DNA of 64,000 bases, taken from the NCBI GenBank assembly GCA_963667975.1, contig OY764079.1, positions 1,428,586 to 1,492,585 on the forward strand. The letters are read 5' to 3'. A program made the position numbers and the translations under genes. Under the pieces are notes generated by a model. That model was given only the letters and a program-made list of their open reading frames with translations. It did no database searches and was not told the DNA's origin. Shown piece after piece: positions 5,102-63,677 of the stretch. The DNA comes from Bacteroidales bacterium (GTDB lineage: Bacteria > Bacteroidota > Bacteroidia > Bacteroidales > G963667975). Every line of letters begins with the position of its first letter. Position 1 is the stretch's first letter.

Positions 5102-5105
5102 TTTC

Positions 5106-7847: not shown

Positions 7848-7860
7848 AGTTTCTGGTTTA

Positions 7861-46672: not shown

Positions 46673-46684
46673 TATGTAGTTGTT

Positions 46685-47434: not shown

Positions 47435-47443
47435 AAAAAAGAT

Positions 47444-48076
47444 ATGAAGAATTTAATTATTATTGGTGCGGGCAATTTTGCAAAAATTCTTTACGAATAT
47501 GCATTGGTAAGCCCCGATTGTAATGTAAAATGGAAAGTAAAAGGATTTATTGATCCAGACATTCATTCATTAGATAATGATCCGGAATTACCACAGGTAC
47601 TCTCTTCAGTTGAAGACTATGACGTATGTGAAGATGATTTATTTATATGTTCATATGTTAATCCTAATGATAGAGAGAAAAGTATCAATATTATCAAATC
47701 CAGAGGTGGAAAGTTTGTGAACCTGATACATCCTACTGCAAATATCAACAGAAGGTCAGTTTTAGGAGAAGGTATTTTTATAGGTGCTTTTACCACATTA
47801 TCTGTAAATACAGTGATAAATGATCATGTGATTATTCAGGATCATTGCAATATTGGTCATGATTCATCTATTGGTAGCTTTTCCCATTTATATGTTAGAT
47901 CTACAGTCTGTGGGAAAAATAATATTGGTAATAAAGTAGCTCTATATACATGCTCTGTAATTTATCCATTAATTAAAGTGTGTGATAGTTCAATAGTAGG
48001 CGCAGGAAGTGTTGTTATGAGAACAGTTAAGGAAGGGACAACAGTTATTGGAAATCCTGCCAAAAAAATGGAATAA
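47444..48076 (+). CDS. NeuD/PglD-family hexapeptide-repeat sugar acyltransferase
   Basis: 210-aa ORF with an N-terminal Rossmann-like LIIIGAGNFAKILYEY followed by a left-handed beta-helix repeat region. Confidence 0.85.
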   Translation: MKNLIIIGAGNFAKILYEYALVSPDCNVKWKVKGFIDPDIHSLDNDPELPQVLSSVEDYDVCEDDLFICSYVNPNDREKSINIIKSRGGKFVNLIHPTANINRRSVLGEGIFIGAFTTLSVNTVINDHVIIQDHCNIGHDSSIGSFSHLYVRSTVCGKNNIGNKVALYTCSVIYPLIKVCDSSIVGAGSVVMRTVKEGTTVIGNPAKKME

Positions 48077-48093
48077 TTAAAAAAGACATAAAA

Positions 48094-48498
48094 ATGCTGA
48101 AAATTGGAGATTCTACGGAAGAGAAAATAAAGTTTACAAAGCAGGAAGTAGTCGATTTTGTGAATCTAATTGGAGATCCGAATCCTGTGCATTTAGATGA
48201 AGAATATGCAAAAAACTCTTACTTTAAAAGATTGGCTGTTCAGGGAATGCATGCAGGATCAAGCTTTTCCAGAGTAATTGGTGCTTATTTTCCAGGAGAA
48301 GGCAGTATTAATATGTATAGAGAGTTTACGTTTATAAGGCCTGTTTTTATTGATGAAGAATACACTATGGCTTTTAAAATTATAGATGTAAATAAAGAAA
48401 CGAATGTTGGTACAATAAGATGTAAATTGATAAATCCACAAGGGAAAATTTGTATTGATTGTACTACGAAAATTAAAAATACAATACAATTTATTTAA
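48094..48498 (+). CDS. MaoC-like (R)-specific enoyl hydratase/dehydratase (hotdog fold)
   Basis: 134-aa ORF with the hydratase motif GDPNPVHLDEEYA. Confidence 0.85.
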   Translation: MLKIGDSTEEKIKFTKQEVVDFVNLIGDPNPVHLDEEYAKNSYFKRLAVQGMHAGSSFSRVIGAYFPGEGSINMYREFTFIRPVFIDEEYTMAFKIIDVNKETNVGTIRCKLINPQGKICIDCTTKIKNTIQFI

Positions 48499-48512
48499 TA
48501 AAATAACACCAT

Positions 48513-49571
48513 ATGGCATTTCTTGAAATTAAAAATGTTGCCTTAAGAGGTGTAGCTGCATGTGTGCCGGCTAAAACCGTTGAAACAAAGGATCTTTCAG
48601 TATTCAAAAAAGATGAAGCGGAAAGATTTACAAAAACTACAGGTATTGAGCGACGCAGAATTGTTGATAATGGTGTTTGCACGTCTGATCTTTGTTTAGC
48701 TGCTGCTGAAAAATTAATTCAGGAGCTACATTGGGATAAATCAGAAATAGATGCATTAATATTTGTTTCAAATACACCTGATTACAGATCCCCGGCAACA
48801 TCTTGTATTCTTCAAAATAGAATGGAATTACCGACTTCATGCCTGACATTCGATATTTCTACAGTATGTGCAGGTTTTCTACAAGGAATTGTAGTGGTGT
48901 CCAGTATATTGTCTTCTGGTACAATAAAAAAAGCATTGCTTCTAGTAGGAGATACAAATTCTCTTACATCCTCTCCAGAAGATAAGTCACGTTACCCGTT
49001 ACTTGGAGATGCCGGAACAGCTTCGGCTTGGGAATATGACGAAACAGCAGATAAAATTTATAGTAATCTATTATCGGATGGTTCATGCTATAAATTTGTA
49101 GGTAGCCCATATAGTGGTTTTCGAAATCAACCCACTCCGGAATCTTTTGTTGTTCAAGATGCGGGAGAAGGAATTAGGAGAGCTCCTATTCACGGAGTTA
49201 TGGATGGAATGGAGGTCTTTTCTTTTGCTATATCAGAATGTCCTAAGGCATTAAAATCTTTGTGCGAACATTACAATATTGATATGCACTCAGGTGTCGA
49301 TTATTATTTGTTCCATCAGGCAAATATGAAGATAAATTCAACTATAATGAAGAAGTTAAAACTTCAAGAAAGTAAAATCCCATCTAATATTAAAGATTTT
49401 GGCAATACAAGCTGTGCAGCAATTCCTCTTTTGATGGTCACTAACATCAAAGAAGAACTTAAAACGCTGGAATTATCTCATATGTTATCTGCTATTGGTT
49501 CAGGATTTGTTTGGGGAAGTATTTATCTTAAAACGAAAAATATAGTTTGTCCGGATCTTTTAGAATTATAG
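48513..49571 (+). CDS. 3-oxoacyl-ACP synthase III family protein (KASIII-2)
   Basis: 352-aa paralog of the ORF at 45608. Triad contexts are STVCAGF, YLFHQANMK and FGNTSCAAIPL. Confidence 0.88.
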   Translation: MAFLEIKNVALRGVAACVPAKTVETKDLSVFKKDEAERFTKTTGIERRRIVDNGVCTSDLCLAAAEKLIQELHWDKSEIDALIFVSNTPDYRSPATSCILQNRMELPTSCLTFDISTVCAGFLQGIVVVSSILSSGTIKKALLLVGDTNSLTSSPEDKSRYPLLGDAGTASAWEYDETADKIYSNLLSDGSCYKFVGSPYSGFRNQPTPESFVVQDAGEGIRRAPIHGVMDGMEVFSFAISECPKALKSLCEHYNIDMHSGVDYYLFHQANMKINSTIMKKLKLQESKIPSNIKDFGNTSCAAIPLLMVTNIKEELKTLELSHMLSAIGSGFVWGSIYLKTKNIVCPDLLEL

Positions 49572-49594
49572 TGGTTGAAATAAATAAATAAATC

Positions 49595-50350
49595 ATGGAA
49601 TACAATCCATTTTCTTTAAAAGATAAAACAATACTTATTACCGGAGCATCCTCTGGAATTGGGAAAGCTGCTGCAATTGAATGCTCCAAGGCTGGAGCTA
49701 GATTGATAATTACGGGTCGGGATGTTGAAAGACTAAATGGTACTTTTTTAGCATTAAATGGTCAGGGACATATGCAAATAACATCTGATATATCTGAAAA
49801 CGATGGGATTGACAAGTTGGTAGATTTTGTTCCTGAATTAGATGGCATGGTAAGTTGTGCCGGCACGGCACGGTATTTATTGACGACTTTTATCAATGAA
49901 AAGGAACTAAATAATACCTTGAGAATTAATACAATCACACCAATTTTGCTTACACAGCGATTGATGAAAAATAAAAAAATAAAAAAATCAGCTTCTTTGG
50001 TTTATGTTTCTTCCGTTGCTGGAAATGAAGTTACTACAGTGGGTTTGGCGATGTATGCAACATCAAAAAGTGGATTAAATGCCTTCGTAAGACATGCAGC
50101 AATAGATTTTGCTTCAAAAAATGTAAGATGTAACAGTGTAAATTTATCCCGGGTTTTTACACCGTTGATTGCTTCGGGAATTATGACGGATGAAAGTCAA
50201 GTTAAAGAAGATTTGAAAGATTATCCTCTTAAAAGGTATGGTCAGCCTGAAGAAATTGCATATGGGATAATTTATTTATTGTCAAATGCAAGTTCTTGGG
50301 TTACGGGAACTTCATTGTTGATAGATGGAGGTTTTTCTCTTAAAAGATAA
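49595..50350 (+). CDS. short-chain dehydrogenase/reductase, FabG-like (SDR-2)
   Basis: 251-aa paralog of the ORF at 46685. Both begin NPFSL..K.I.ITGASSG.G. It carries YATSKSG. Confidence 0.88.
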   Translation: MEYNPFSLKDKTILITGASSGIGKAAAIECSKAGARLIITGRDVERLNGTFLALNGQGHMQITSDISENDGIDKLVDFVPELDGMVSCAGTARYLLTTFINEKELNNTLRINTITPILLTQRLMKNKKIKKSASLVYVSSVAGNEVTTVGLAMYATSKSGLNAFVRHAAIDFASKNVRCNSVNLSRVFTPLIASGIMTDESQVKEDLKDYPLKRYGQPEEIAYGIIYLLSNASSWVTGTSLLIDGGFSLKR

Positions 50351-50368
50351 TCTGTAAAAATAATTTAA

Positions 50369-51058
50369 ATGCTGAATATAACAAGGTTAGTTAATTGCCC
50401 GGTTCCTTCGAATTGTTATATAGTTTCGAGTAACGTAAATAATTCCTGCATAATCATTGATCCTGGTATTGAAGATTGTATTGAACTGATTTCAATATTG
50501 AAAAAAAATCAGCTTTCTCCCGAGTATATTATTTTAACACATGAACATATTGATCATATTGTCGGTATAAACAAGCTAAAGGAAAGCTTTGATATAAAAT
50601 TAGTAACCTCTGCCCAATGTGACCAAAATATAACATCTTCAAAATATAACTTATCCGGCTATTCTGAGAAATATGATGAATATATTGATTTTCCAGCTTC
50701 TGATATAATATTGGAGGATATTAATTATTCATTAAACTGGTGTAATTACAAACTGAAATTTACAAAAGCTGAAGGCCATAGTCTGGGATCTATAATTCTT
50801 AATATTGATAATAATTTATTTACAGGAGATACTTTATTAAAGGGATATAAAACAAATACATCATTTCCGGGAGCCTCTAAGGAAAATCTTTTACATACTT
50901 TAGAAGATATTATAAGTCAATATAATACACTAACAACGATGGTCTATCCAGGTCATGATGATCCTTTCTATTTACATGAAGTTGAACAAGATGTTAGAAA
51001 CCAGATAATTGAACTAAGGTCGAAAATAAATAAAAAACTTAAAAAACTGGTTGAATAA
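50369..51058 (+). CDS. MBL-fold metallo-hydrolase (glyoxalase II-like, possible thioesterase)
   Basis: 229-aa ORF with the HxHxDH motif (THEHIDHIVG). Confidence 0.8.
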   Translation: MLNITRLVNCPVPSNCYIVSSNVNNSCIIIDPGIEDCIELISILKKNQLSPEYIILTHEHIDHIVGINKLKESFDIKLVTSAQCDQNITSSKYNLSGYSEKYDEYIDFPASDIILEDINYSLNWCNYKLKFTKAEGHSLGSIILNIDNNLFTGDTLLKGYKTNTSFPGASKENLLHTLEDIISQYNTLTTMVYPGHDDPFYLHEVEQDVRNQIIELRSKINKKLKKLVE

Positions 51059-51071
51059 AAAATAGAAGAAT

Positions 51072-51482
51072 ATGGGTATCTCGCATATTGAGCATATTGG
51101 AATTGCTGTTAAGTCTCTTGATGATAGCATTCCTGTTTTCGAAAATTTATTAGGAGTAAGGTGTTATGCCATTGAAGAGGTAAAGGAACAATGTGTTAGA
51201 ACAGCTTTTTTTCTGATTGGAGAAACCAAAATTGAATTATTGGAATCTACTTCTTCAGAAGGTCCAATAAGTTCTTTTGTGGAAAAAAATGGTGTGGGCA
51301 TTCACCATATTGCCTTTTGTGTTGATGAAACCAATAGCGCTTTATCATCTGCAAAGGAAAATGGATTTAAATTAATTGATAAAGTTGCAAGAAAAGGAGC
51401 TGAAAATATGAATATAGGATTTTTAAATCCACGATCAACCTTGGGGCTTCTTATAGAGTTTTGTTCAAAAGATAAAGCTTAG
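51072..51482 (+). CDS. mce: methylmalonyl-CoA epimerase (VOC family)
   Basis: 136-aa ORF with HIEHIGIAVKSLDDSIPVFENLLG, KIELLE, GIHHIAFCVDE and LIEFC, the typical MCE pattern. Confidence 0.75.
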   Translation: MGISHIEHIGIAVKSLDDSIPVFENLLGVRCYAIEEVKEQCVRTAFFLIGETKIELLESTSSEGPISSFVEKNGVGIHHIAFCVDETNSALSSAKENGFKLIDKVARKGAENMNIGFLNPRSTLGLLIEFCSKDKA

Positions 51483-51559: not shown

Positions 51560-52570
51560 ATGCTGAGTAATAAATCTATATTAATTACTGGAGGTACTGG
51601 CTCTCTTGGTAAGGCTTTGACTAAAACAATATTGGAAAAATGGCCCGACGTAAAACGACTTGTAATTTATTCACGCGATGAGCAGAAACAATTTGTAATG
51701 GATCAGGAGTATCCTCATTCCAAATACCCACAAATTCGCTTCTTTATTGGCGATGTGAGAGATAAAAGTAGACTAGTACGTGCATTGAGTGGCATAGATT
51801 ATGTTATACATGCAGCTGCAATGAAACATGTTCATATAGCAGAGTATAACCCTACAGAGTGTGTGCAAACTAATATTGGAGGTGCTCAAAATGTAATAGA
51901 AGCTTGCCTTGATACAGGAGTTAAAGCTGTTGTAGCTCTTTCTACAGATAAAGCTTGTGCTCCGATAAATCTTTACGGTGCAACAAAACTTACATCTGAT
52001 AAACTTTTTGTTGCAGCAAATAATTATAAAGGGAATAATCCTATAAAATTTTCCGTAGTAAGATATGGAAATGTTATGGGATCTAATGGCTCTGTAATTC
52101 CTTTTTTTATCAATAAAAAAAAGGAAGGTGTGATTCCTATAACGGAACCTAATATGACTCGTTTTAATATTCCAATTCATGAAGGTGTTGAAATGGTTTT
52201 ATTTGCATTAGAAAATGCGTGGGGCGGAGAAATCTTTGTTCCTAAGATTCCTTCTTATAGAATTATGGATGTTGCAAAAGCAATTGCTCCCGAATGTGAA
52301 CATAGAATAATTGGTATTCGGCCAGGTGAAAAAGTTCATGAAGAAATGATTACAGCATCAGATGCTTTTCATACATATGATATTGGTAACTATTATGCAA
52401 TATTGCCCCAAAAACCGACGTGGAAATTAGAAGATTTTATTAGATCTTATAATGCTAAAAAAGTACCGGAGGGATTTCATTATAGCTCAGGTGAGAACTC
52501 CGAATGGGAAACTATTGATGAACTTAGAAGAAAAATTAAGGAATTTGTAGATCACACATTTGAAGTTTAA
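51560..52570 (+). CDS. pseB: UDP-N-acetylglucosamine 4,6-dehydratase (inverting)
   Basis: 336-aa ORF with ILITGGTGSLGKAL, IYSRDEQKQ and YGATKL. It is followed by pseC. Confidence 0.88.
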   Translation: MLSNKSILITGGTGSLGKALTKTILEKWPDVKRLVIYSRDEQKQFVMDQEYPHSKYPQIRFFIGDVRDKSRLVRALSGIDYVIHAAAMKHVHIAEYNPTECVQTNIGGAQNVIEACLDTGVKAVVALSTDKACAPINLYGATKLTSDKLFVAANNYKGNNPIKFSVVRYGNVMGSNGSVIPFFINKKKEGVIPITEPNMTRFNIPIHEGVEMVLFALENAWGGEIFVPKIPSYRIMDVAKAIAPECEHRIIGIRPGEKVHEEMITASDAFHTYDIGNYYAILPQKPTWKLEDFIRSYNAKKVPEGFHYSSGENSEWETIDELRRKIKEFVDHTFEV

Positions 52571-52574
52571 AAAT

Positions 52575-53726
52575 ATGAAAAATATACCATATGGCAGGCA
52601 ATATATTACAGAAGAGGATATTGCAATAGTTGTTGAAACGCTTAAGTCTGATTTTTTGACTCAAGGGCCTCGTATTAAACAATTTGAAGATGCCTTTGCT
52701 GAGTATTGTAATTGCAAATATGCAGTAATGGTAAGTAATGGCACAGCTGCACTTCATTTAGCAGCAATGGCTCTTGGTATTAAACCAGGTGATAAAATAA
52801 TTACGACACCTATCACATTTGTTGCAAGTGCAAACGGCTTTAGATATTGTGGAGCCGATATTACATTTTGCGATATTGATCCCAGAACATACCTACTTGA
52901 TTTAAATAAGTTGGAAGAATTATTAGCTACGTCCCCAAAAGGAACATACAAGGCTGTCGTTCCTGTTGATTTTGCAGGATATCCTATCGATGTGGAACGC
53001 TTACGTGTAATTGCTGATAAGTATGGTTTGGCAATAGTCGAAGATGCTTGCCATGCTCCCGGAGCCTTTTTTTATGATGGAAAAAGGGAGAGACAAATAG
53101 CAGGGAGCAGTAATTATTCTGACATGACCGTCTTCTCTTTTCATCCTGTAAAACATATTGCAACCGGAGAAGGTGGTGCTATTGTGACAAATAATGAGGA
53201 ATTATACAAAAAACTATTGCTTTATAGAACTCATGGGATTACAAAAAATCCGGATGAACTTGAGCAAACAGATGGTGGGTGGTATTATGAGATGCAAGAA
53301 TTGGGATATAATTATCGTATTACAGAAATTCAGGCAGCTCTAGGTATCTCTCAGCTAAAACGTTTGGAATGGAGTGTCGAAAGAAGAAATGAGATTGCAA
53401 GTAAGTATACGAAAGCCTTTGAAGGTACTTCTGTAAAAGCACCTTTCATACAAACAGGTATTCGACATGCTTTTCATTTATATGTTGTACAAGTAGAGAA
53501 ACGAAAAGAATTGTATGAATATTTGAAAGCTCATAATATTTTCTCACAGGTGCTTTATATTCCTGCACATTTAATGCCCTACTATCGCCAATTTGGCTGG
53601 AAACAAGGAGATTTTCCGATTGCCGAAGATTATTATAACCATTGCCTGAGTTTGCCAATGTATCCTTCATTGACAAATGAAGAACAAGATTATGTAATTG
53701 AAAAAATCATAGAATTTATTAATTAA
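52575..53726 (+). CDS. pseC: UDP-4-amino-4,6-dideoxy-N-acetyl-beta-L-altrosamine transaminase
   Basis: DegT/DnrJ/EryC1 family ORF starting MKNIPYGRQYITEEDI, with FHPVKHIATGEGG (PLP Lys). The TTG at 52560 in the ORF track overlaps pseB, so the ATG at 52575 is preferred. Confidence 0.88.
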   Translation: MKNIPYGRQYITEEDIAIVVETLKSDFLTQGPRIKQFEDAFAEYCNCKYAVMVSNGTAALHLAAMALGIKPGDKIITTPITFVASANGFRYCGADITFCDIDPRTYLLDLNKLEELLATSPKGTYKAVVPVDFAGYPIDVERLRVIADKYGLAIVEDACHAPGAFFYDGKRERQIAGSSNYSDMTVFSFHPVKHIATGEGGAIVTNNEELYKKLLLYRTHGITKNPDELEQTDGGWYYEMQELGYNYRITEIQAALGISQLKRLEWSVERRNEIASKYTKAFEGTSVKAPFIQTGIRHAFHLYVVQVEKRKELYEYLKAHNIFSQVLYIPAHLMPYYRQFGWKQGDFPIAEDYYNHCLSLPMYPSLTNEEQDYVIEKIIEFIN

Positions 53727-54589
53727 TGAACTTGACCAGTAAATTAATAATAGGGACTGTCCAGTTTGGATTAAACTATGGGGTTAATAATCAGGGAGGT
53801 AAGGTGCTACAGAGTGAGGTGAATTCTATATTATCTTATGCTGTTACAAAGGGTGTTGATATGCTTGATACCTCTTATGCCTATGGTTCAAGCGAGATTG
53901 CGATTGGTGAAGCTTTGAAGCAAAATTCGATGAGGTATAATATCGTTTCAAAGTATCCCCGATCAGAAAAAAGTGTTTTTGCAATTTTTGAAGAGTCTCT
54001 CAATCGATTGAATCAAACTAACTTATATGGTTATTTGATTCATCATTTTGATTTTTATCAATCAAATCCTCATATATGGACTGATATGCTTAAATTAAGG
54101 GATAATCAAAAGGTTGAAAAAATAGGATTCTCACTTTATACGATTGATCAGTTGCTTTTTTTGCTGAATAATAATGTTGAATTCGATCTTTTGCAGATTC
54201 CATACAATATTTTTGATAGACAATTTGAGGCTTTTTTCCCTGAATTAAAAAAAAGAGGGGTTGAGATACATACCCGATCAGTTTTTCTTCAGGGATTATT
54301 TTTTAAAGATACAGTTACCTTAAGTGAGAAATTGGAACCTCTCAAATATTACCTGGATATGCTTCACAAATATTGTAATGATAATGATTTTGGAGTGGAA
54401 AAATTGGTTTTAAATTATGTAGTTAACAATCCATATGTTGATAGGGTTTTAGTGGGCCTGGATAATTTAGAACAGCTTAAAAAGAATATTTCTATTTTGA
54501 ATTTAGGTGTTTCTCAATATGATATAAATTTTATAGATTCGTTGCATATAAAAGAAAAGGAGTTACTTAATCCTGTTAATTGGAATTAG
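53726..54589 (+). CDS. aldo/keto reductase
   Basis: 287-aa ORF with a GTVQFGLNYG start and an AKR fold pattern (DTSYAYGSSE). Confidence 0.8.
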   Translation: MNLTSKLIIGTVQFGLNYGVNNQGGKVLQSEVNSILSYAVTKGVDMLDTSYAYGSSEIAIGEALKQNSMRYNIVSKYPRSEKSVFAIFEESLNRLNQTNLYGYLIHHFDFYQSNPHIWTDMLKLRDNQKVEKIGFSLYTIDQLLFLLNNNVEFDLLQIPYNIFDRQFEAFFPELKKRGVEIHTRSVFLQGLFFKDTVTLSEKLEPLKYYLDMLHKYCNDNDFGVEKLVLNYVVNNPYVDRVLVGLDNLEQLKKNISILNLGVSQYDINFIDSLHIKEKELLNPVNWN

Positions 54590-54592
54590 ATT

Positions 54593-55378
54593 ATGAATGT
54601 AATTGAAAGTTTCTCCCTGAAAGGGAAAGTTGCTATTATAACTGGTGGTGCGGGGCATTTAGGCACCGCTATGTCTGAAGCTTTAAATGAAGCTGGAGCC
54701 GTAGTTGCAGTGATTGAATTATCTCAGGAGAAATTTGATGAGAAATTTGCCGGAAAAGAAAATTATTTTTTTGTACAGGGTGATATTTCTGATACAGAGA
54801 ATATTAAGAAATGTTACCAGACTGTATTTGATAGATATGGTCGTATTGATGTATTAATAAATAATGCGGTTTATTTAAAGGGAGGGGGATGTTTACCAGA
54901 GCAAATTACAGATGAGATGTGGGCAATAAGTGCCGATGGCGTTTTAGGAAGCGTTTTCCGTTGTATAAGAGAGATAATTCCATATATGGGAAAAAATGGT
55001 GGATCTATTGTAAATATTGCTTCTATGTATGGTGTAGTCATTCCTGATCTGTCTATGTATAATGGAGCATGCAGCCCTTATTTAAATCCAATTAATTATG
55101 GCGCATTAAAAGCGGGAGTAATACAGTTGACAAGATATTTTGGAGCTTATCTGATATCTAAAGATATAAATGTTAATTGCGTAACACCGGGTACATTTCC
55201 ATCACCAAAGGTGCAGGAAAATGTAGAATTTGTCGAAAGATTGTCAGGTAAAAATCCTGCCAACAGAATTGGTAAGCCGGAAGATCTAAAAGGAGCAATA
55301 CTGTTTCTTTCATCAAATGCTTCAAATTATATTGTTGGCCAGAATATTATCATAGATGGGGGATGGACTTTAGCTTAG
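54593..55378 (+). CDS. SDR-family oxidoreductase
   Basis: 261-aa ORF with TGGAGHLG, NNAV and YGALKAG motifs. Confidence 0.85.
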   Translation: MNVIESFSLKGKVAIITGGAGHLGTAMSEALNEAGAVVAVIELSQEKFDEKFAGKENYFFVQGDISDTENIKKCYQTVFDRYGRIDVLINNAVYLKGGGCLPEQITDEMWAISADGVLGSVFRCIREIIPYMGKNGGSIVNIASMYGVVIPDLSMYNGACSPYLNPINYGALKAGVIQLTRYFGAYLISKDINVNCVTPGTFPSPKVQENVEFVERLSGKNPANRIGKPEDLKGAILFLSSNASNYIVGQNIIIDGGWTLA

Positions 55379-55418
55379 AAATTTATATTAACAATAGTGA
55401 TATGTAAAACTATTTAAA

Positions 55419-56435
55419 ATGGAGTTTAGGATAGGTGATAAAACGATTAACGATAATAATTTATATTTTATCGTTGAAGAAGGGCAGGCAAATCAAGGTG
55501 ATTTGAATATTGCTCGGAAAATGATTGAGCTCGCTAAGGATACCGGGGCGGATGCGATTGAGTTTCAGTTAGCAATTGCGGATGATTTCTATATAAGTTC
55601 ACATCCTGTATATGAAAGATATAAGAAAATCGAATTACCATTACAGCATATGGAAAACATTATACATTATGCTCATGAGTGCAAAATCGATTTTATTGCA
55701 GCATCATTAAGCCATAATCTAATTAAATATTTGGTAGACTTTGGGTGTGATGCGTTTAATATAAATGCATCAGATATTAATAATCCATTTATTGTTGATG
55801 AGGTTTGTAAATCTGAATTACCTTTTTTTGTAAGCTTACCACTCGCAAATGAATCTGAAATAGATTGGATTAATAATAGAATTGAAAAAAGAAATGTAAA
55901 TAACTTTACGTTTCTTCATGGGCAGCATTCAATGGCAAGCGGTGTTGATGGTGTTATGCCTGAACATACAAGTTTAGGTTATATAAAGACATTAAAGAAT
56001 AGATATAAAAAACCAGTAGGTTATATAGATCATACTCCTGATATTTGGATGCCGGCATGTGCAGTAGCTTCTGGTGCTAATATTATTTCAAAACATCTTA
56101 TTATTGATAGAGAACTTAAAGGGCCTGATTGGAGAATATGTCTTGAACCGAGTGAAATGAAAGAAGCAATAAATAATGCGAGAAAGATAAATAAAAGCAT
56201 AAGTACGGTTGATAAAATTTTGGCTCCAGGTGAAAATATTGATATCTCTATCATGCGTAGAAGTATTGTATTTAAAAGAGATTTACCGAAAGGTTCTGAA
56301 ATATCAATTGAGGATATTGAATTTAAAAGACCAGGGACAGGTATTGCTCCGAGTGAATATGATTCGATTTTAGGTAAGAGATTAAGTGAAAGTGTAGTAA
56401 AAGATGATATCTTACTGATGAATAATTTATATTAA
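55419..56435 (+). CDS. divergent NeuB-family (sialic-acid-synthase-like) protein with a C-terminal SAF domain
   Basis: 338-aa ORF with NeuB layout but altered motifs: IVEEGQANQGD versus the usual AE.G.NHNG, and FLHGQHS versus LLHC.S.YP. It keeps GYIDHT and ISKHLIID, and has a SAF-like tail. Confidence 0.8.
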   Translation: MEFRIGDKTINDNNLYFIVEEGQANQGDLNIARKMIELAKDTGADAIEFQLAIADDFYISSHPVYERYKKIELPLQHMENIIHYAHECKIDFIAASLSHNLIKYLVDFGCDAFNINASDINNPFIVDEVCKSELPFFVSLPLANESEIDWINNRIEKRNVNNFTFLHGQHSMASGVDGVMPEHTSLGYIKTLKNRYKKPVGYIDHTPDIWMPACAVASGANIISKHLIIDRELKGPDWRICLEPSEMKEAINNARKINKSISTVDKILAPGENIDISIMRRSIVFKRDLPKGSEISIEDIEFKRPGTGIAPSEYDSILGKRLSESVVKDDILLMNNLY

Positions 56436-56452
56436 TATAATTACATAAAATT

Positions 56453-57241
56453 ATGGATTTATACTTAAAGGATAGGGTTGCGATAATTGGAGGTAGTAGT
56501 AAAGGACTTGGGAAAGCCTGTGCTTACAAGCTTGCTTGCGAAGGCGCTAATATTGTACTATGTGCTAATGATTATGATTCTCTTTGTAGAACAGAATCTG
56601 AAATACGTTTATTAGGAGTTGATGTATTACCGTTGATGGTAAATATGTCATCGAAAAATGATAATGAATTCATTGTTAATGAGACAATTAAAAAATTTGG
56701 AAAGATAGATATACTTGTTAATAATTCAGGAGGACCAAAGCCTGGTGCTTTTTTTGATATAAATGAAGAAGATTGGGCAAAAGCATTTGAAGATGTTCTG
56801 CTTTATGCTGTTCGAATGATTAATTTGGTGGCTCCTTACATGAAAGAAAATAATTGGGGGAGAATTGTTAATCTAACTTCATTAACAGTTAAAGAGCCAG
56901 CTCCATCGCTTATTCTTTCTAATGTTTTTAGAACAGGAGTAGTTGCAATGGCAAGGAGTTTGTCGAAAGAATTAATTCGGCATAATATAACAATAAATAA
57001 CATTTGTCCGGGAGCTTTTAAAACAGAAAGAGCAATAGAACTCATGCAAGTAGCTGCAGATAAGCAGAATAAAAGTATTGAGGAAATTGAAAATAATGCA
57101 ATAAGTAAAATGCCGTTAGGACGGTATCAACATCCCAATGAGCTAGGCGATTTAGTAGCTTTTCTTTCATCTGAATTGGCAAAGGGAATAACGGGTACTA
57201 CTATACAAATCGACGGAGGTATTTTTAATGGGCTGCTTTAA
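56453..57241 (+). CDS. SDR-family oxidoreductase (FabG-like)
   Basis: 262-aa ORF with IGGSSKGLG and NNSGG motifs. The usual catalytic Tyr position reads SNVFRTG, so it is atypical. Confidence 0.8.
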   Translation: MDLYLKDRVAIIGGSSKGLGKACAYKLACEGANIVLCANDYDSLCRTESEIRLLGVDVLPLMVNMSSKNDNEFIVNETIKKFGKIDILVNNSGGPKPGAFFDINEEDWAKAFEDVLLYAVRMINLVAPYMKENNWGRIVNLTSLTVKEPAPSLILSNVFRTGVVAMARSLSKELIRHNITINNICPGAFKTERAIELMQVAADKQNKSIEEIENNAISKMPLGRYQHPNELGDLVAFLSSELAKGITGTTIQIDGGIFNGLL

Positions 57242-57262: not shown

Positions 57263-58237
57263 ATGGATAAGATTAAGTTTATTCCGACTTTAAAGAATAA
57301 TAAAAAATCAGGAGAGTTAATATCACTTGGTGATGATCTTGACTATAATAGACCATGTGATAGTGGGTTAGATTTGAGTGAAATAGAATTACTTGTTAGG
57401 GGGTATAATGTATTAGCTGTTGATAAAAATTCTGGAGAACCATTATATTCTAGTGATTTTAGAAAGGCAAAGATAGCGATCGTAATTGCATGTAGATTAA
57501 GTTCAAAAAGACTTCCTCGAAAAGCATTACTTAATGTTGGATCTTTGTCCTTGGTGGAATTAAGTATAAAGAATAATCTAAAGTTAAAAAATGTTGATTA
57601 TACTATCTTGGCGACTTCTGTAAATCCTGAAGATGCGGAATTATCTGAACACACATATTCCAAAAATGTAATCTTTTTTGCAGGAGATCCAGATGATGTA
57701 ATAAAAAGATATCTGGATGCAGTAGACCCTTTAGGTGTTGATGTAATAGTAAGAAAAACAGCAGATTGTCCATTCCCTTCTTCTGAGATTTTTGATATAC
57801 TGCTTAAAGAACATTTTGTACGAGGAGCTGATTATACTGCAGGTAAAAAAACTACAGTTGGGTTGAATTCAGAAATAATGAATGTGAAATCTTTGAAAAG
57901 AATTAAGGAATATTTTCCAAAGGCTTCTTACTCTGAATATATGACTTGGTACTTTACAAATAATCCAGAGTACTTTAAATTAAATATAGTTGATTTGCCT
58001 GATAAATTTTCGAGAAATTATCGTTTAACAGTTGATTACAAAGAAGATCTGTTGATGTTCGATATCGTGCAAAAATATTTTGAAAGTAATAATTTGGAGT
58101 ATTCTACAGAAAAACTATTCGAATTTCTGGACAAAAATCCAGAAATTAATTCTATTAATTCACATATTCAATTGAAATTTAAATCTGATCAGGAATTGAT
58201 CGATGTTTTGAATCGTGAAACAAAAATGAAACTCTGA
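57263..58237 (+). CDS. pseF: acylneuraminate cytidylyltransferase-family protein (SpsF/PseF-like) with an N-terminal extension of about 70 aa
   Basis: 324-aa ORF. IAIVIACRLSSKRLPRKAL matches the SpsF-type cytidylyltransferase N-motif. It lies within the pse gene set. Confidence 0.7.
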   Translation: MDKIKFIPTLKNNKKSGELISLGDDLDYNRPCDSGLDLSEIELLVRGYNVLAVDKNSGEPLYSSDFRKAKIAIVIACRLSSKRLPRKALLNVGSLSLVELSIKNNLKLKNVDYTILATSVNPEDAELSEHTYSKNVIFFAGDPDDVIKRYLDAVDPLGVDVIVRKTADCPFPSSEIFDILLKEHFVRGADYTAGKKTTVGLNSEIMNVKSLKRIKEYFPKASYSEYMTWYFTNNPEYFKLNIVDLPDKFSRNYRLTVDYKEDLLMFDIVQKYFESNNLEYSTEKLFEFLDKNPEINSINSHIQLKFKSDQELIDVLNRETKMKL

Positions 58238-58270
58238 AAATATTCATACTGTTGCTTTAAAACAGTGTCT

Positions 58271-59245
58271 ATGAAAAAAAATAAAATATTTTTTCGCGCA
58301 GATGCAAGCAAGCAGATAGGTTATGGACACTTCGTTCGCAGCTTGGCTCTTGCGGATATGCTTAAAGATAATTTTGACTGTACATTTTTTACTCAATCGC
58401 CAACTGAGTATCAGAAAAATGAAGTAGAGAGAATCTGTAAATTAGTTGAATTACCTTCTGATGAAACAAAATTTGATGTTTTTCTGAGCTATTTAAGTGG
58501 TGATGAGATTGTTGTTTTGGATAATTCATTTTATTCTACTGATTATCAGGTGAGTATTAGGATTAGGGGTTGTAGGCTGGTTTGTTTGGGTGGAAATGAT
58601 AAACATTATGTTGCGGATTTAATAATCAGTCAGGGTACTTTGGATAGTAGTAGCTTTTCTGCTGAAATATATACGAAGTTTTGTTTAGGCCTTAATTGGG
58701 CGTTGCTTAGGAGGCCTTTTTTGGAAAATAAAAATAAAATAAAAACAGAATCTGCTATTCGTCGTGTTGTTGTTTGCTTTGGCGGGACTGATTTTCACAA
58801 TTTCACAGGTAAAGTGACAAAAATTCTTTGTAAATTACCGTCTATAGAAAAGATAGATATTATTATAGGTGATGTTTACGAAGGCTCCATTGAATCTGAT
58901 TGTATCCCAAAAGTTCAAATGCACAAGAATCTTAGTGCAGAGGAAATTGTTTTGTTGTTTGATCAAAATGATCTTGCTATTCTTTCGTCAAGTTCTATAT
59001 GTATTGAAGCAATGGCTTGCAATATTCCTGTTATCGCGGGCTATTATGTAGATAATCAAGATGCTTTTTATCACATTCTTGAAAAGTCAAATTATATTAT
59101 CGGCATAGGGAGTCTTCTTGATCCAAATATGACAGATAAGCTTCTTAATGCCTTGATTCACAAAAATGAATATTATCTGGTTTCTCCTTTTTCTGATTTA
59201 ACGACTATTTCTAAACGTTATTCCAAAGTATTTAATGAATTATGA
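58271..59245 (+). CDS. pseG: UDP-2,4-diacetamido-2,4,6-trideoxy-beta-L-altropyranose hydrolase
   Basis: The ORF starts MKKNKIFFRADASKQIGYGHFVRSLALADML, typical of PseG. The ORF track starts 6 nt upstream at a GTG. Confidence 0.85.
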   Translation: MKKNKIFFRADASKQIGYGHFVRSLALADMLKDNFDCTFFTQSPTEYQKNEVERICKLVELPSDETKFDVFLSYLSGDEIVVLDNSFYSTDYQVSIRIRGCRLVCLGGNDKHYVADLIISQGTLDSSSFSAEIYTKFCLGLNWALLRRPFLENKNKIKTESAIRRVVVCFGGTDFHNFTGKVTKILCKLPSIEKIDIIIGDVYEGSIESDCIPKVQMHKNLSAEEIVLLFDQNDLAILSSSSICIEAMACNIPVIAGYYVDNQDAFYHILEKSNYIIGIGSLLDPNMTDKLLNALIHKNEYYLVSPFSDLTTISKRYSKVFNEL

Positions 59246-59880
59246 TAATAGACAGAGAGAAAGTATATACTATTAATAATTATGTTTATAAAAATTTCAT
59301 TAGCCTGAGTGAACAGGAATTGATGATGATATTAGAGTGGCGAAATAATGAGGCAATCAGAAAATGGATGACAAATACTGAACCTATTTCACTCGAAAAT
59401 CATTTAAAATTTGTAGGATCTTTATCTTATCGGGATGATTTATTTTATTGGGTTGTATTTAAAGATAATTTACCAGTTGGAGTTGTCGATGTATTTTCGA
59501 TAAATCGGGATGAAGATAGTGCTGAAACCGGGTATTATTTAAATCCAGAGTATCTTGATTCAGGAGTAGGTTTTGAATTTTATTATTACTTTAAGCTATT
59601 TATTCATGATAGTTTAGATATAAAAATAACGAGAGGATTAATGCAGAAAGAAAACATAAAATCATTTATGTTAATTACTTATTTTGGGGGAGAAGCAATT
59701 AAAGTAAAGGATATAGATGGTGATGGCTATTTCTTGATGGAAACGAATAAGAAAGATTTTGAATTAATTAAGGAGAATGCAAATGATGTATTGAAATTTG
59801 CAAAATACATAAGAAGCCATAAAATAGATTTGAACAATCTTTATAAGGAAAAAATATTGAATAGTAGAAATGAAAGATAA
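59242..59880 (+). CDS. pseH: UDP-4-amino-4,6-dideoxy-N-acetyl-beta-L-altrosamine N-acetyltransferase (GNAT)
   Basis: 212-aa ORF with LSEQELMMILEWRNNEAIRKWM, typical of PseH. It overlaps pseG by 4 nt and pseI by 11 nt. Confidence 0.8.
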   Translation: MIIDREKVYTINNYVYKNFISLSEQELMMILEWRNNEAIRKWMTNTEPISLENHLKFVGSLSYRDDLFYWVVFKDNLPVGVVDVFSINRDEDSAETGYYLNPEYLDSGVGFEFYYYFKLFIHDSLDIKITRGLMQKENIKSFMLITYFGGEAIKVKDIDGDGYFLMETNKKDFELIKENANDVLKFAKYIRSHKIDLNNLYKEKILNSRNER

Positions 59881-60877
59881 GGTATTTATTATAGCTGAGA
59901 TGTCGGCAAATCATAATCACAATTTTGATTTGGCGGTGAAAACCATCGAAGCAATGGCAGAGGCAGGAGCTGATGCCGTGAAATTTCAGACTTATAAACC
60001 CGATTCATTAACTCTAAATGTTGATAATGAGTATTTTGGTCCGAGGGAAAGCGGTTTATGGAAGGGGATGACATTATATGATATATATACAGAAGGATCT
60101 ATGCCTTATGAATGGCAACCCAGATTGAAAAAAATTGCAAATGATTTAGGTCTGATATGTTTTTCAACACCTTTTGATATGGAAGGAGTCGATTTTATGG
60201 AAGAAATGCAAATGCCAATTTATAAAATAGCTTCTTTAGAAATTACAGATATTAATCTGATAGGATATGCTGCCTCAAAGAATAAGCCCATGATTATTTC
60301 TACCGGAGTTGCAACGATTGAGGATATAGAGTTGGCAATTAGTACGTGCAAAAAAGCTGGCAATAATGATATTACCTTGTTAAAATGTACAACAGAATAT
60401 CCAGCTCCGATTGAGAAGGCGAATCTTTTGACTATCTCCGATATGAAAGATAGATTTAATGTAAATGTTGGTGTTTCTGATCATTCCATGACGAATACAA
60501 TTCCTATTACCTCTGTGGCTTTAGGAGCTACAGTGGTTGAAAAGCATTTTATTATTGATCGTGCTTTAGGAGGACTGGATTCTGCATTTTCATTAAATAA
60601 AGACGAATTTAAAGCAATGGTAATAGCAATCAGGGACACAGAAAAGGCTCTTGGCAAAATTTCGTATGATTTAGAAGGCAGAGGTGTTACAGGGCGTCGA
60701 TCTCTTTTTGCAAGTGAAGATATTAAAGCAGGGGAGTTATTTACTCAATATAATGTTAAATCAGTTAGACCTGCTGCAGGGTTGCATCCAATGTATTACA
60801 ATGAAATACTAGGGAAACATGCAGTCTCTGACATACGGAAGGGAGATCCATTAAAACTGAATGATATCAGAGCGTAA
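59870..60877 (+). CDS. pseI: pseudaminic acid synthase
   Basis: 335-aa ORF with canonical NeuB/PseI motifs (IIAEMSANHNHNFDLA, GADAVKFQTY, LLKCTTEYPAP, GVSDHS, VEKHFIID) and a SAF tail. Confidence 0.9.
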   Translation: MKDKVFIIAEMSANHNHNFDLAVKTIEAMAEAGADAVKFQTYKPDSLTLNVDNEYFGPRESGLWKGMTLYDIYTEGSMPYEWQPRLKKIANDLGLICFSTPFDMEGVDFMEEMQMPIYKIASLEITDINLIGYAASKNKPMIISTGVATIEDIELAISTCKKAGNNDITLLKCTTEYPAPIEKANLLTISDMKDRFNVNVGVSDHSMTNTIPITSVALGATVVEKHFIIDRALGGLDSAFSLNKDEFKAMVIAIRDTEKALGKISYDLEGRGVTGRRSLFASEDIKAGELFTQYNVKSVRPAAGLHPMYYNEILGKHAVSDIRKGDPLKLNDIRA

Positions 60878-60899: not shown

Positions 60900-62357
60900 A
60901 TGAGTTTGTTTAAGCGATTAAAAGTAGCATTACTAAATAAAATTACTTTATATATTATCTCAAGATATTTTGTTTTCTTTATTCAGTTTGTTGCTTCAAT
61001 GTTTCTGGCAGTTAAACTGGGGCCGTATTATTTTGGAATTTGGGGTTTTATCCTCTTATTAATTACATATTTTGATTTGTTTAATTTGGGAATCCCTAAT
61101 TCAACTACAGTTTTACTTGTTCAATACAAGAATGAGACTGTTAAAAACCGTAATATTGAAACAACTTCTGTTTTTCTGATTGCATTGCTCGGAATATTTG
61201 TAGTTGCCTTAGCTTTATATTACTACATTTGGGGCATAAGCTGGTTTAACAAATATCAAGTTGGAAGCTTTTTTTATGGTGTTTGTTTTATAGCAATTTT
61301 AGTATATTTCAATAATTTATTTTCAAAGATTTATCGTGTTAAAGGCAGAATATTTGAAATAGCATTATTCCAATCGATTGTACCTGTCTTGACATTTATT
61401 GTTTTATTCTTTGCTAAGGATCGGGTATTATTATATGTTTTGCTAGGCGCTTACATCTTAGGTCAACTATTTTCTCTTTTAATGTTTGTTAAAGGGAAAA
61501 GGATACAATTTGATGGAGATCCCAGTGTCGGTGATGCGAAGAAAATTTTAACAAAAGGATTTTTTCTCTTTATTTATAGTAGCTGTTTTTATCTGATTGT
61601 ACTTTCTACGCGAACAATAATTAGTGCATATTATAGCGTTGAGGAATTTGGATATTTCACCTTTGCATATACATTGGCGAATTCTGTACTATTGCTTCTT
61701 GAAGCATTTTCTTATCTGATTACACCTAAATTATTGGATAAGGTAAATTCACCCGATGTTAAACAGGTAGAAGCTACGATAAATAGTTTACGTGATAATT
61801 ACGTTTCGCTATCACATGGACTTATGTATCTGGCGATATGTCTTTTCCCGATATTATTGTATTTTATTCCAAAATACTCAAACACTCTGTCTATTATTAA
61901 CTTAATAGCATTAACATTATTATTGTACACTAATTCATTTGGATATATTTCATTGTTAATGGCAAGAAATCGCGAAAAAATAATTGCAATAAATTCTTTT
62001 TTAGTATTAATTTTAAATATATTAATTGCATTTGTATTGGTTAAAATGTTTCATGTGAAATTTAATTATGTTGTGATATCTACTATGTGTAGTTATTTGG
62101 TTTATTCTTATTTATTGGTATTTTTTGGTATGAGAGAGCTTAACCAGTCAAGACATTTTAGAGCAGTTATCAGAAACTGTTTTCCATTAAAATTGCTTAT
62201 CCCTTTTATTGTTGCGTTTGTAATCATCTTATTGGACTTACAAATATTTATTTTTATCCCAGGTACAATATTTGTAATTTTAAATATTAATTCACTTAAG
62301 AGTATATTTAAAATGTCAAAAAAAATAATTAATAATCCTAGTATTATTGATCTTTAG
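60900..62357 (+). CDS. wzx: Wzx-type oligosaccharide flippase (polysaccharide biosynthesis protein family)
   Basis: 485-aa ORF with about 12-14 predicted TM helices, positioned in the glycan operon. Confidence 0.8.
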   Translation: MSLFKRLKVALLNKITLYIISRYFVFFIQFVASMFLAVKLGPYYFGIWGFILLLITYFDLFNLGIPNSTTVLLVQYKNETVKNRNIETTSVFLIALLGIFVVALALYYYIWGISWFNKYQVGSFFYGVCFIAILVYFNNLFSKIYRVKGRIFEIALFQSIVPVLTFIVLFFAKDRVLLYVLLGAYILGQLFSLLMFVKGKRIQFDGDPSVGDAKKILTKGFFLFIYSSCFYLIVLSTRTIISAYYSVEEFGYFTFAYTLANSVLLLLEAFSYLITPKLLDKVNSPDVKQVEATINSLRDNYVSLSHGLMYLAICLFPILLYFIPKYSNTLSIINLIALTLLLYTNSFGYISLLMARNREKIIAINSFLVLILNILIAFVLVKMFHVKFNYVVISTMCSYLVYSYLLVFFGMRELNQSRHFRAVIRNCFPLKLLIPFIVAFVIILLDLQIFIFIPGTIFVILNINSLKSIFKMSKKIINNPSIIDL

Positions 62358-62387
62358 ACGAATAATATTTTATAAAACATAGTTTAT

Positions 62388-63677
62388 ATGGAGCTATTCA
62401 AGAATATAAAAACATTAGATTTTTTTCGCTTTGTGGTAATTGGATTATTATTGTTTTCTAATGCTGTATATCAAAATACAATTCACCAATTATTATATTA
62501 TGAAATTGTAAGTGCCATTTTTATTATAACAGTAGTTTATGTATTGATAAAAACATTAACACCTGGGAAATTTATGAGAGTCAGGTTTAGTCGTAAATTC
62601 TTGATTTGGATATTGCTTTTGTTTTCTTTTTATACACTTCACTATTTTTTAGCACCTCAAAATAAAGAGATTTCAGTTTATAGTATGCTTTCTCAATGTG
62701 TTATTGTGTTGTGTATTATATTGTGGTTGTGTGATTTAGAGTATAAGGGGGCCTTTGATATATTTGTATTTAGTGCGTCTATTGCATCTGTAATAGCTTC
62801 TCTTTATTATGTTTACTATAGTATTGGTGATGTTTTATTGCTTAATATGAGATTAGGAGGAATGACAGATAATGTACTTTCAAACATAAACTATACTTCA
62901 CAAATTGTGTTAATGATTTCATCATTGAGTTTGTATAAAATATTTTTTGAAAAAACACACAATAAATTGTATGTAATTATATTTATTATACAATTTTTAT
63001 TTATTATTTTATCAGGAACAAAGAGGGCAATTATTGGTCTCCCTATTTTTTATATTGTATTTATTTTAATTAAAAATCGCCGATCATTTTTCAGGTATAT
63101 ACTACCGTTAACGATAGGTTTAGGTTTATTTGTTTATATTTTGCTGAATAACGAATTATTATATAACATCGCAGGAGAACGATTGGAAGGAATGTTTTAT
63201 GCACTTGGAATTGTGCAGGATAATAAGTTTGATATTGGGGATAACTCTACGAATATTAGAAAGCAATTATTTAATACTGCCATTGAGATGGTCCCTGAAA
63301 CTCCAATATGGGGGCGGGGACTGGGCTATTTTGAAACTCATTCTGGACTGAATACTCATGTTCAAATTTTTCATTCTCATAATAATTACCTTGAGCTGTA
63401 TTTATGTTATGGATTAATAGGTTTTTTGATGTACTATAGCATCTTTTTCAGAACAACAATCAGGTTGTTTCGCAAGAAGAAAAAGTCAGCTATGGTATAT
63501 TTATTTCTTGCTTTTTTCTTGGTTTTATATGTGATTATTGAGCCCTCTTCAGTAACATTTTATACACTACCGATATATTATCTCTATCTGTATTTTGCAT
63601 ATTTATATTCATGGAAGAGAGATTCTAATATGCCCAATTCGGACATTTCTGTGCAAAATAAATATAGTCAAGTTTGA
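62388..63677 (+). CDS. wzy: O-antigen polymerase/ligase family membrane protein (Wzy-like)
   Basis: 429-aa polytopic ORF with a large loop containing GRGLGYFETH...HSHNNYLE, typical of the Wzy_C / O-antigen ligase family. Confidence 0.8.
   Translation: MELFKNIKTLDFFRFVVIGLLLFSNAVYQNTIHQLLYYEIVSAIFIITVVYVLIKTLTPGKFMRVRFSRKFLIWILLLFSFYTLHYFLAPQNKEISVYSMLSQCVIVLCIILWLCDLEYKGAFDIFVFSASIASVIASLYYVYYSIGDVLLLNMRLGGMTDNVLSNINYTSQIVLMISSLSLYKIFFEKTHNKLYVIIFIIQFLFIILSGTKRAIIGLPIFYIVFILIKNRRSFFRYILPLTIGLGLFVYILLNNELLYNIAGERLEGMFYALGIVQDNKFDIGDNSTNIRKQLFNTAIEMVPETPIWGRGLGYFETHSGLNTHVQIFHSHNNYLELYLCYGLIGFLMYYSIFFRTTIRLFRKKKKSAMVYLFLAFFLVLYVIIEPSSVTFYTLPIYYLYLYFAYLYSWKRDSNMPNSDISVQNKYSQV

Follow-up and report, generated by a model that had tools for sequence, protein, structure and literature searches.

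A divergent NeuB-family protein paired with an atypical SDR lies within a pseudaminic acid operon of a Bacteroidales bacterium

The window analyzed here, a stretch of 64,000 nucleotides from the genome of an uncultured Bacteroidales bacterium (assembly GCA_963667975.1, contig OY764079.1, positions 1,428,586 to 1,492,585), contains an operon for the biosynthesis of pseudaminic acid (Pse) that is interrupted by four additional genes. The first two genes of the pathway, pseB (51560..52570; inverting UDP-GlcNAc 4,6-dehydratase, TIGR03589, 509 bits with a cut-off of 408) and pseC (52560..53726; aminotransferase, TIGR03588, 497 bits, cut-off 424), are separated from the genes encoding a cytidylyltransferase, PseG, PseH, and PseI by an aldo/keto reductase gene (AKR; 53726..54589), a classical short-chain dehydrogenase/reductase gene (SDR1; 54593..55378), a gene for a NeuB-fold protein with a SAF domain (NeuB2; 55419..56435), and an atypical SDR gene (SDR2; 56453..57241). 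An earlier note, made from the sequence alone, had described this interruption; all four open reading frames were found exactly where it had placed them, and their families were confirmed by profile models (PF00248 for AKR, E 9e-33; adh_short_C2 for SDR1, E 2e-42, with PRK09186 also matching, and for SDR2, E 6e-45; PF03102, 133 bits, and SAF, PF08666, 44 bits, for NeuB2). The pathway resumes with an SpsF-type cytidylyltransferase (57263..58237; CTP_transf_3 at residues 72-247), a pseG-like UDP-sugar hydrolase gene (58265..59245; TIGR03590, 140 bits, slightly under the cut-off of 153.6), a pseH-like N-acetyltransferase gene (59242..59880; GNAT domain, TIGR03585, 77 bits, cut-off 93), and pseI (59870..60877). 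The downstream genes for a Wzx flippase and a Wzy polymerase (60900..63677; PF01943 and PF04932) place the operon, as judged from these families, in a Wzy-dependent surface polysaccharide locus.

Every gene between 51560 and 63677 is on the plus strand, and the intergenic spacing from pseB through wzx ranges from -11 to +40 bp, the four genes being part of one tight operon. GC content is even across the operon (0.30-0.37). A recent foreign insertion of the four genes was considered and rejected, since both the GC content and the spacing are even and the gene order pseC-NeuB2-SDR2-cytidylyltransferase recurs in other phyla. A scan of the operon for sigma-70 promoters and terminators yielded signals at background level only, uninformative on operon structure. 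A near-identical locus is present in a related genome (OY781965.2). Directly 5' of pseB lies an acyl-chain cassette (45608-51482) with genes for KASIII, an SDR, a hexapeptide acyltransferase, a MaoC dehydratase, a second KASIII, another SDR, an MBL-fold protein, and a glyoxalase/VOC protein.

The protein encoded at 59870..60877 is the canonical Pse synthase that the earlier note took it to be: it scores 452 bits with TIGR03586 (cut-off 340.25), its best match is PDB 8H2C (E 8e-100), and all canonical residues are retained. NeuB2 falls below the cut-offs of both equivalog models, with 197 bits for NeuB (TIGR03569, cut-off 399.65) and 150 bits for PseI. It has more than 260 homologues, mostly metagenomic, with 47-70% identity among the 120 listed. 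In the phylogenetic tree the 22 sampled members form a single clade apart from the PseI clade, with a Shimodaira-Hasegawa-like approximate likelihood ratio (SH-aLRT) support of 100 and a stem of 1.48 substitutions per site. The AlphaFold2 model of NeuB2 (mean predicted local distance difference test score 92.5) has the TIM-barrel plus SAF fold of NeuB, PseI, and LegI (1XUZ, 8H2C), with template modeling (TM) scores of 0.80-0.82 to 8H2C (Campylobacter jejuni PseI) and 1XUU (Neisseria meningitidis NeuB). By these comparisons NeuB2 is a truly divergent member of the NeuB family, as had been suspected from its motifs, and presumably descends from a nonulosonate synthase.

A divergent copy lying so far under the family cut-offs could be a decaying duplicate of pseI. 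Relative to the related genome, however, NeuB2 of the window has 17 synonymous substitutions and one non-synonymous one, and the ratio of non-synonymous to synonymous polymorphism per site (pN/pS) of 0.014 indicates strong purifying selection, with constraint like that on pseB. Decay is refuted as well by the existence of the more than 260 full-length homologues, by 50 invariant columns in the alignment of 22 sequences, and by the confident prediction of the fold, and its probability can be regarded as negligible. NeuB2 is thus not a dying gene, and the sequence data taken together indicate that it is no second synthase of the ordinary kind either.

Gene neighborhoods of NeuB2 were collected in one pattern-limited scan of 185,579 species genomes, which gave 16 loci, and from plasmid records. 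The family is rare and patchily distributed, occurring in Bacteroidota, Omnitrophota, WOR-1, one metagenome-assembled genome of Deltaproteobacteria, and Verrucomicrobiota; none of 400 sampled Bacteroidota genomes had NeuB2 at E <= 1e-60. In 14 of the 15 other loci the gene immediately following NeuB2 is that for SDR2; pseB and/or pseC are usually located just upstream, and an SpsF-type cytidylyltransferase gene usually follows. PseI or another NeuB-type synthase is present in every NeuB2 locus. Two types of fusion protein were detected, AKR-NeuB2 (P0125-P0127) and GNAT-NeuB2 (P0047). The pair also occurs in culturable hosts, namely on plasmids of the Bacillus cereus group, where it has a more canonical form, and in Flaviaesturariibacter flavus. 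NeuB2 and SDR2 therefore constitute a conserved module that extends across phyla and is so far uncharacterized.

Some of these loci have additional features. A class-III aminotransferase of 436 amino acids, absent from the window block, is encoded in seven of the 15 NeuB2 loci (L004, L007, L008, L011, L012, L013, and L016; e.g., L008:13462-14772); it resembles glutamate-1-semialdehyde aminomutase and GntE and may aminate the tailored sugar. The Omnitrophota locus L012 encodes two fusions, an RmlD-like reductase with PseC (725 amino acids, 3891-6068) and GNAT with NeuB2 (526 amino acids, 7369-8949), the GNAT part of the latter being weakly PseH-like (27.6 bits).

The active site of NeuB2 was mapped in the numbering of N. 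meningitidis NeuB, using published lists of synthase residues (PMC6795526, PMC8208679), by comparison of the 22 NeuB2 members with 14 PseI proteins and 5 other synthase-like sequences of the same loci. The altered motifs described before, EEGQANQGD (residues 20-28) and FLHGQHS (165-171), are present, as are the kept motifs IDHT (203-206) and SKH (224-226) and the SAF domain. The two metal histidines, H215 and H236 in NeuB and H205 and H226 in NeuB2, are invariant in all 22 members, and the equivalents of E25, Q55, S154, D247, and R314 are kept as well. The HMMER and MAFFT alignments disagree by one residue at the N-terminal motif, E25 corresponding to E20 or E21; in either case the Glu is kept and H30 is lost. 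Seven other positions are replaced in 20-22 of the 22 members, namely K53E, K129N, S132A, E134D, Y186M, S213I, and E234S/T. Roles of K53 and S132 are said to have been described by Gunawan and colleagues in 2005. The canonical residues at all seven positions are kept in 14 of 14 PseI proteins, and those at K53, K129, S132, Y186, and E234 are strict in the 5 other sequences too; the exceptions are E134, which is Asp in two of the five, and S213, with one exception. At the position of N184, NeuB2 has an invariant His, and the 14 PseI and 5 other synthase-like sequences have Ser/Thr or variable residues.

In summary of the residue comparison, NeuB2 has the fold, the SAF domain, and the two metal histidines of a nonulosonate synthase and lacks the residues of its phosphoenolpyruvate (PEP) site and catalytic center (K53, K129, S132, Y186, S213, and E234). 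In the pocket, the sugar half thus appears to be kept along with the metal site, and the PEP half appears to have been rebuilt, being less basic, partly hydrophobic, and provided with a new invariant Glu and His. In NeuB2 numbering, E48, N114, A117, H170, M172, and I203 belong to this former PEP pocket. This combination suggests that NeuB2 catalyzes a new reaction, probably independent of PEP, on a sugar of the Pse pathway, and there is good reason to believe that NeuB2 is not a canonical PEP-aldose synthase. Arg residues R280 and R281 of the SAF domain were considered as a new compensation for the lost lysines and dropped, because the same Arg pair is found in PseI.

The earlier note had proposed that the locus makes a second 2-keto-3-deoxy acid, and NeuB2 could indeed still be a PEP-dependent synthase that forms a nonulosonic, octulosonic, or higher-carbon acid from another aldehyde, with the reductases preparing or finishing the substrate. 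The retained fold, SAF domain, metal histidines, and equivalents of E25, Q55, D247, and R314 agree with such a function, the NeuB-like partner of an SDR2 orthologue in B. cereus has most of the canonical PEP-site residues, and E134D is common among archaeal and eukaryotic synthases (PMC8208679). However, NeuB2 has lost six residues conserved in the synthases compared, among them the two lysines and two serines of the PEP site, in exchange for acidic or hydrophobic ones; moreover, a bona fide synthase stands beside NeuB2 in each of its loci, and a second hydrolase or epimerase that would supply another free aldose is not encoded in the window locus. Condensation with PEP, and with it a second acid, is therefore unlikely.

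The second member of the pair, SDR2, lacks the catalytic Tyr-x3-Lys motif of classical SDRs, as had been noticed, and has S156-N-V-F-R160 in its place; Ser-x3-Arg is conserved in all 15 orthologues aligned. The Rossmann and NNSGGP nucleotide-binding motifs are intact. The best relative of solved structure is AerF (6JH7; 174 bits, E 4e-50), which is matched over the full length, and BacG/YwfH (3U49) matches as well. In both SDR2 and AerF the Tyr position is occupied by Ser, whereas the Lys position is Arg in SDR2 and Asn in AerF, and the context of SDR2 is sugar biosynthesis rather than that of prephenate-derived amino acids. BacG and AerF reduce the C=C bond of 2-oxo-3-enoic acids, and AerF, the solved relative, has been described as an NADPH-dependent alkenal C=C reductase. 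SDR2 shares 37% identity and the unusual motif with the SDR whose gene follows the NeuB-family gene in Bacillus. By its full-length similarity to Tyr-less enzymes, SDR2 would be a hydride transferase of the AerF/BacG type that uses NAD(P)H.

The loss of family-catalytic residues in both proteins, E234 and the PEP-site lysines in NeuB2 and Tyr and Lys in SDR2, might alternatively mean that they are pseudoenzymes that bind or channel Pse intermediates or stabilize PseI or the cytidylyltransferase, much as NeuD has been proposed to stabilize NeuB (PMC5109656). But the substitutes in NeuB2 are themselves invariant (E48, N114, D119, Q169, H170, and M172) and the metal ligands are kept, which is typical of a new active site and not of a dead one. 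AerF demonstrates that Tyr-less SDRs of this group are active, and the nucleotide-binding motifs of SDR2 are undamaged. We consider a non-catalytic role of the pair improbable.

The AKR and SDR1 genes have a different distribution. A plasmid of Priestia megaterium F20 carries the order pseC-cytidylyltransferase-AKR-SDR1-like-pseG-pseH-pseI and no NeuB paralogue. On plasmid p1 of B. cereus 21155 a plain pse operon is accompanied by two divergently transcribed pairs, AKR followed by SDR and a NeuB-family gene followed by SDR, and all four extra genes are absent from the pse operon of B. thuringiensis IS5056. SDR1, which retains the Tyr-x3-Lys motif (YGALK), is 44-45% identical to the SDRs adjoining the AKR genes in the Pse loci of the Priestia and B. 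cereus plasmids. The four genes were treated in the earlier note as one block to be sought in other genomes; both pairs were indeed found beside the B. cereus p1 operon, but elsewhere they occur separately (AKR-SDR without a NeuB paralogue in Priestia, NeuB2-SDR2 alone in other loci), so that the insert is made up of two independent pairs rather than one unit. The B. cereus-group plasmids (L020:9327-13702 compared with L019) vary naturally in the AKR-SDR and NeuB-like-SDR pairs beside the pse operon, and the strains are culturable.

A precedent for the first pair is provided by EpaA (CTP_transf_3 plus AKR) and EpaB (a 262-amino-acid adh_short_C2 SDR) of Acinetobacter baumannii prophages, which convert Pse5Ac7Ac into its 8-epimer 8ePse5Ac7Ac, as determined by nuclear magnetic resonance (Sharar et al. 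2025, PMC12053666). The window has the same domain content together with a Pse pathway, a CTP_transf_3 cytidylyltransferase, an AKR, and an adh_short_C2 SDR of about 262 residues, the likeness being one of architecture. It differs from the prophage system in that three separate genes lie inside the pse operon, the cytidylyltransferase has a SAF-like N-terminus, and NeuB2 and SDR2 have no counterpart. A Vibrio Pse cluster likewise contains an SpsF-AKR fusion followed by a dehydrogenase, with no function assigned (PMC7371886). AKR, SDR1, and a cytidylyltransferase co-occur with the complete Pse pathway in the window and in the Priestia and B. cereus plasmid operons. Relatives of AKR at 38-42% identity are fused to CTP_transf_3 or to NeuB2 (P0127); in the fusions with CTP_transf_3 the AKR part comes first, at 38-40% identity to the window AKR in P0128, P0129, and P0130 and at 32% in P0131. 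From domain content and architecture, fusions, and synteny, AKR is likely the reductase half, and SDR1 likely the EpaB-like dehydrogenase half, of an Epa-like module for epimerization at C8.

AKR and SDR1 may instead act on another Pse hydroxyl, on a hexose precursor, or on the acyl chain of the cassette at 45608-51482, which lies directly upstream. Both belong to huge families, and their comparison with EpaA and EpaB is by architecture, not by sequence. Nevertheless, the pair travels with Pse operons devoid of an acyl cassette on the Priestia and B. cereus plasmids, and the AKR subfamily is repeatedly fused to CTP_transf_3, like EpaA. An action elsewhere than at C8 thus seems doubtful.

A search of a phage collection for relatives of EpaA and EpaB returned unrelated AKRs only. 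Among viral contigs the SDR2 profile had no match, and the AKR profile found one contig with PseI, PseB, and AKR, in which an Epa-like fusion is absent. On this IMG/VR contig (L026:1492-4672) PseI-like, PseB-like, and AKR-like genes lie side by side, which suggests, from gene content, that phage carriage of Pse-pathway genes extends beyond the epaAB prophages of Acinetobacter.

The cytidylyltransferase had been singled out in the earlier note as SpsF-like, extended at the N-terminus by about 70 residues, and possibly specific for a non-standard sugar acid. The first two statements stand: some 70 residues precede CTP_transf_3, which starts at residue 72; the protein has no match to TIGR03584 and so is not a classical PseF by that model; and no PseF of that type scores above the cut-off (205.7 bits) genome-wide, the best score being 41 bits. 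The third statement was not upheld. The protein is 34% identical to the SAF plus CTP_transf_3 protein of the B. thuringiensis pse operon over residues 15-322 (95% of its length, E 8e-57), and the alignment takes in residues 15-71 of the extension. In the Bacillus protein, encoded between pseC and pseG, the N-terminus is a SAF domain (24.7 bits, cut-off 21); the SAF model gives no score for the window protein. That operon, Pen-Pal-PseC-[SAF-CTP]-PseG-PseH-PseI, corresponds to the CMP-Pse operon of B. thuringiensis as it is cited in PMC7439481 and PMC5109656. The window has the same order of pseC, SAF-like plus CTP_transf_3, pseG, pseH, and pseI, with the four genes inserted between pseC and the cytidylyltransferase, whereas Bacillus has Pen and Pal instead of PseB. 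The biochemical role of the Bacillus cytidylyltransferase in the CMP-pseudaminic acid operon was reportedly described by Li and colleagues in J Biol Chem in 2015. Since the extension aligns with the SAF domain of the Bacillus enzyme and the gene order is the same, the cytidylyltransferase does not look exotic: the extension is, by this alignment, a degenerate SAF or SAF-like domain, and the protein is best interpreted as the ordinary PseF of that lineage and the PseF equivalent of the locus. Compared with the related genome (L001), the first 210 nucleotides of the gene (57263-57472), which encode the SAF-like extension, show 100% identity, and the 29 differences all fall in the remainder of the gene.

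The above analysis suggests that the locus combines the usual route to CMP-pseudaminic acid with two add-on pairs of tailoring genes acting before a Wzx/Wzy-dependent polysaccharide, a reading to which we assign a probability of roughly 45%. PseB, PseC, PseH, PseG, and PseI, followed by the Bacillus-type cytidylyltransferase as PseF, would yield CMP-pseudaminic acid. For the four inserted genes we infer the catalytic steps from gene content, residue replacements, conservation, pairing, fusions, and purifying selection. AKR and SDR1, together with the cytidylyltransferase, would be a split version of the EpaA/EpaB system: SDR1 would oxidize a Pse hydroxyl, most likely that at C8, AKR would reduce the resulting ketone from the opposite face, and the cytidylyltransferase would activate the epimer. 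Remodeling of the Pse skeleton by PEP condensation plus redox steps had been suggested before; its redox part fits best with the EpaA/EpaB domain content of AKR, SDR1, and the cytidylyltransferase, and its condensation part is improbable for the reasons given above. NeuB2, no longer condensing PEP, may bind a sugar of the Pse pathway, its metal polarizing a carbonyl or hydroxyl group for proton abstraction, and the outcome would be either dehydration to an enone or epimerization next to the carbonyl, which SDR2 would complete with NAD(P)H. For the NeuB2-SDR2 pair, tailoring of the Pse skeleton seems somewhat more probable than synthesis of a separate acid. In its most specific form, metal-assisted loss of the 4-OH from an open-chain nonulosonate would give a 2-oxo-3-enoate, whose C=C bond would be reduced by SDR2 to give a 4-deoxy nonulosonate; this particular scheme is unlikely to be correct in detail. 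More generally, and tentatively, the NeuB2 clade may consist of former synthases turned into PEP-independent, metal-dependent tailoring enzymes, dehydratases or keto-enol epimerases, which act in concert with an AerF-type SDR on pseudaminic acid or its hexose precursor to produce an undescribed nonulosonic acid (4-deoxy or a new stereoisomer), the two genes spreading between phyla as a mobile unit.

Several observations weigh against this reading. The NeuB-like partner of the SDR2 orthologue in B. cereus retains K129, S132, Y186, and E234; the pair may thus have begun with a genuine synthase, and a novel mode of PEP binding by NeuB2 is conceivable. A nonulosonate substrate of NeuB2 is hard to reconcile with the missing carboxylate-binding lysines, K53E being expected to repel a carboxylate, and we know of no 4-deoxy nonulosonate in nature. 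Likeness to AerF does not prove C=C reduction by SDR2, and relatives in Burkholderia with the same S-N-x-x-R motif are without known function. Sequence similarity to EpaA (SBS22546.1) and EpaB (SBS22545.1) forms no part of the basis for the Epa link, and EpaA carries its cytidylyltransferase domain N-terminally, whereas the fusions found here start with AKR. Finally, several loci carry NeuB2-SDR2 without AKR or SDR1, so that gene content does not reveal the order in which the enzymes act.

Bacterial capsules, O-antigens, flagella, and spores are capped by nonulosonic acids, whose exact stereochemistry and substituents govern whether they are recognized by antibodies, phages, and lectins. To our knowledge, the described routes to the rarer isomers (Ela, Aci, and Epa) use dehydrogenase/reductase pairs only. 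In Acinetobacter, the ElaABC and AciA-E modules lead from legionaminic acid (Leg) to 8eLeg, Aci, and 8eAci (PMC13656337, PMC5595891). As proposed here for the first pair, an add-on dehydrogenase, a reductase, and a cytidylyltransferase turn a finished nonulosonate into a stereoisomer; unlike the window system, Ela uses a Gfo/Idh/MocA oxidase with an SDR and acts on CMP-Leg, and neither PMC13656337 nor PMC5595891 mentions a NeuB-fold protein for the Ela and Aci modules. The WOR-1 NeuB2-SDR2 locus (L008:3991-6420) contains a trio of a Gfo/Idh/MocA oxidoreductase, CTP_transf_3, and an SDR that resembles the 8-epimerization module ElaA/ElaB/ElaC of Acinetobacter.

The cytidylyltransferase and the AKR/SDR1 pair of the window can apparently be explained by known systems, which leaves NeuB2-SDR2 as the uncharacterized module. 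Should the proposed function be true, the conserved pair, with its synthase fold turned to another use, would represent a new way of diversifying nonulosonic acids and a clear case of a PEP-condensing TIM barrel that has evolved a different reaction. Predictors that work from genomes would be misled by two "NeuB" genes into calling two sugar acids, and an Epa-like pair would escape them when its members are separate genes. The natural comparisons of loci with and without the pairs in culturable hosts make the question directly testable.

The same genome contains a third NeuB-family gene in a separate cluster outside the window (L025:2811-10602, corresponding to G000:C1:3908811-3916602). The cluster encodes a NeuC-like epimerase, CTP_transf_3, a transketolase-like protein of 658 amino acids, a class-III aminotransferase, an SDR, a HAD phosphatase, and a NeuB protein without the SAF domain, and by its gene content looks like a second, unusual ulosonic acid pathway.

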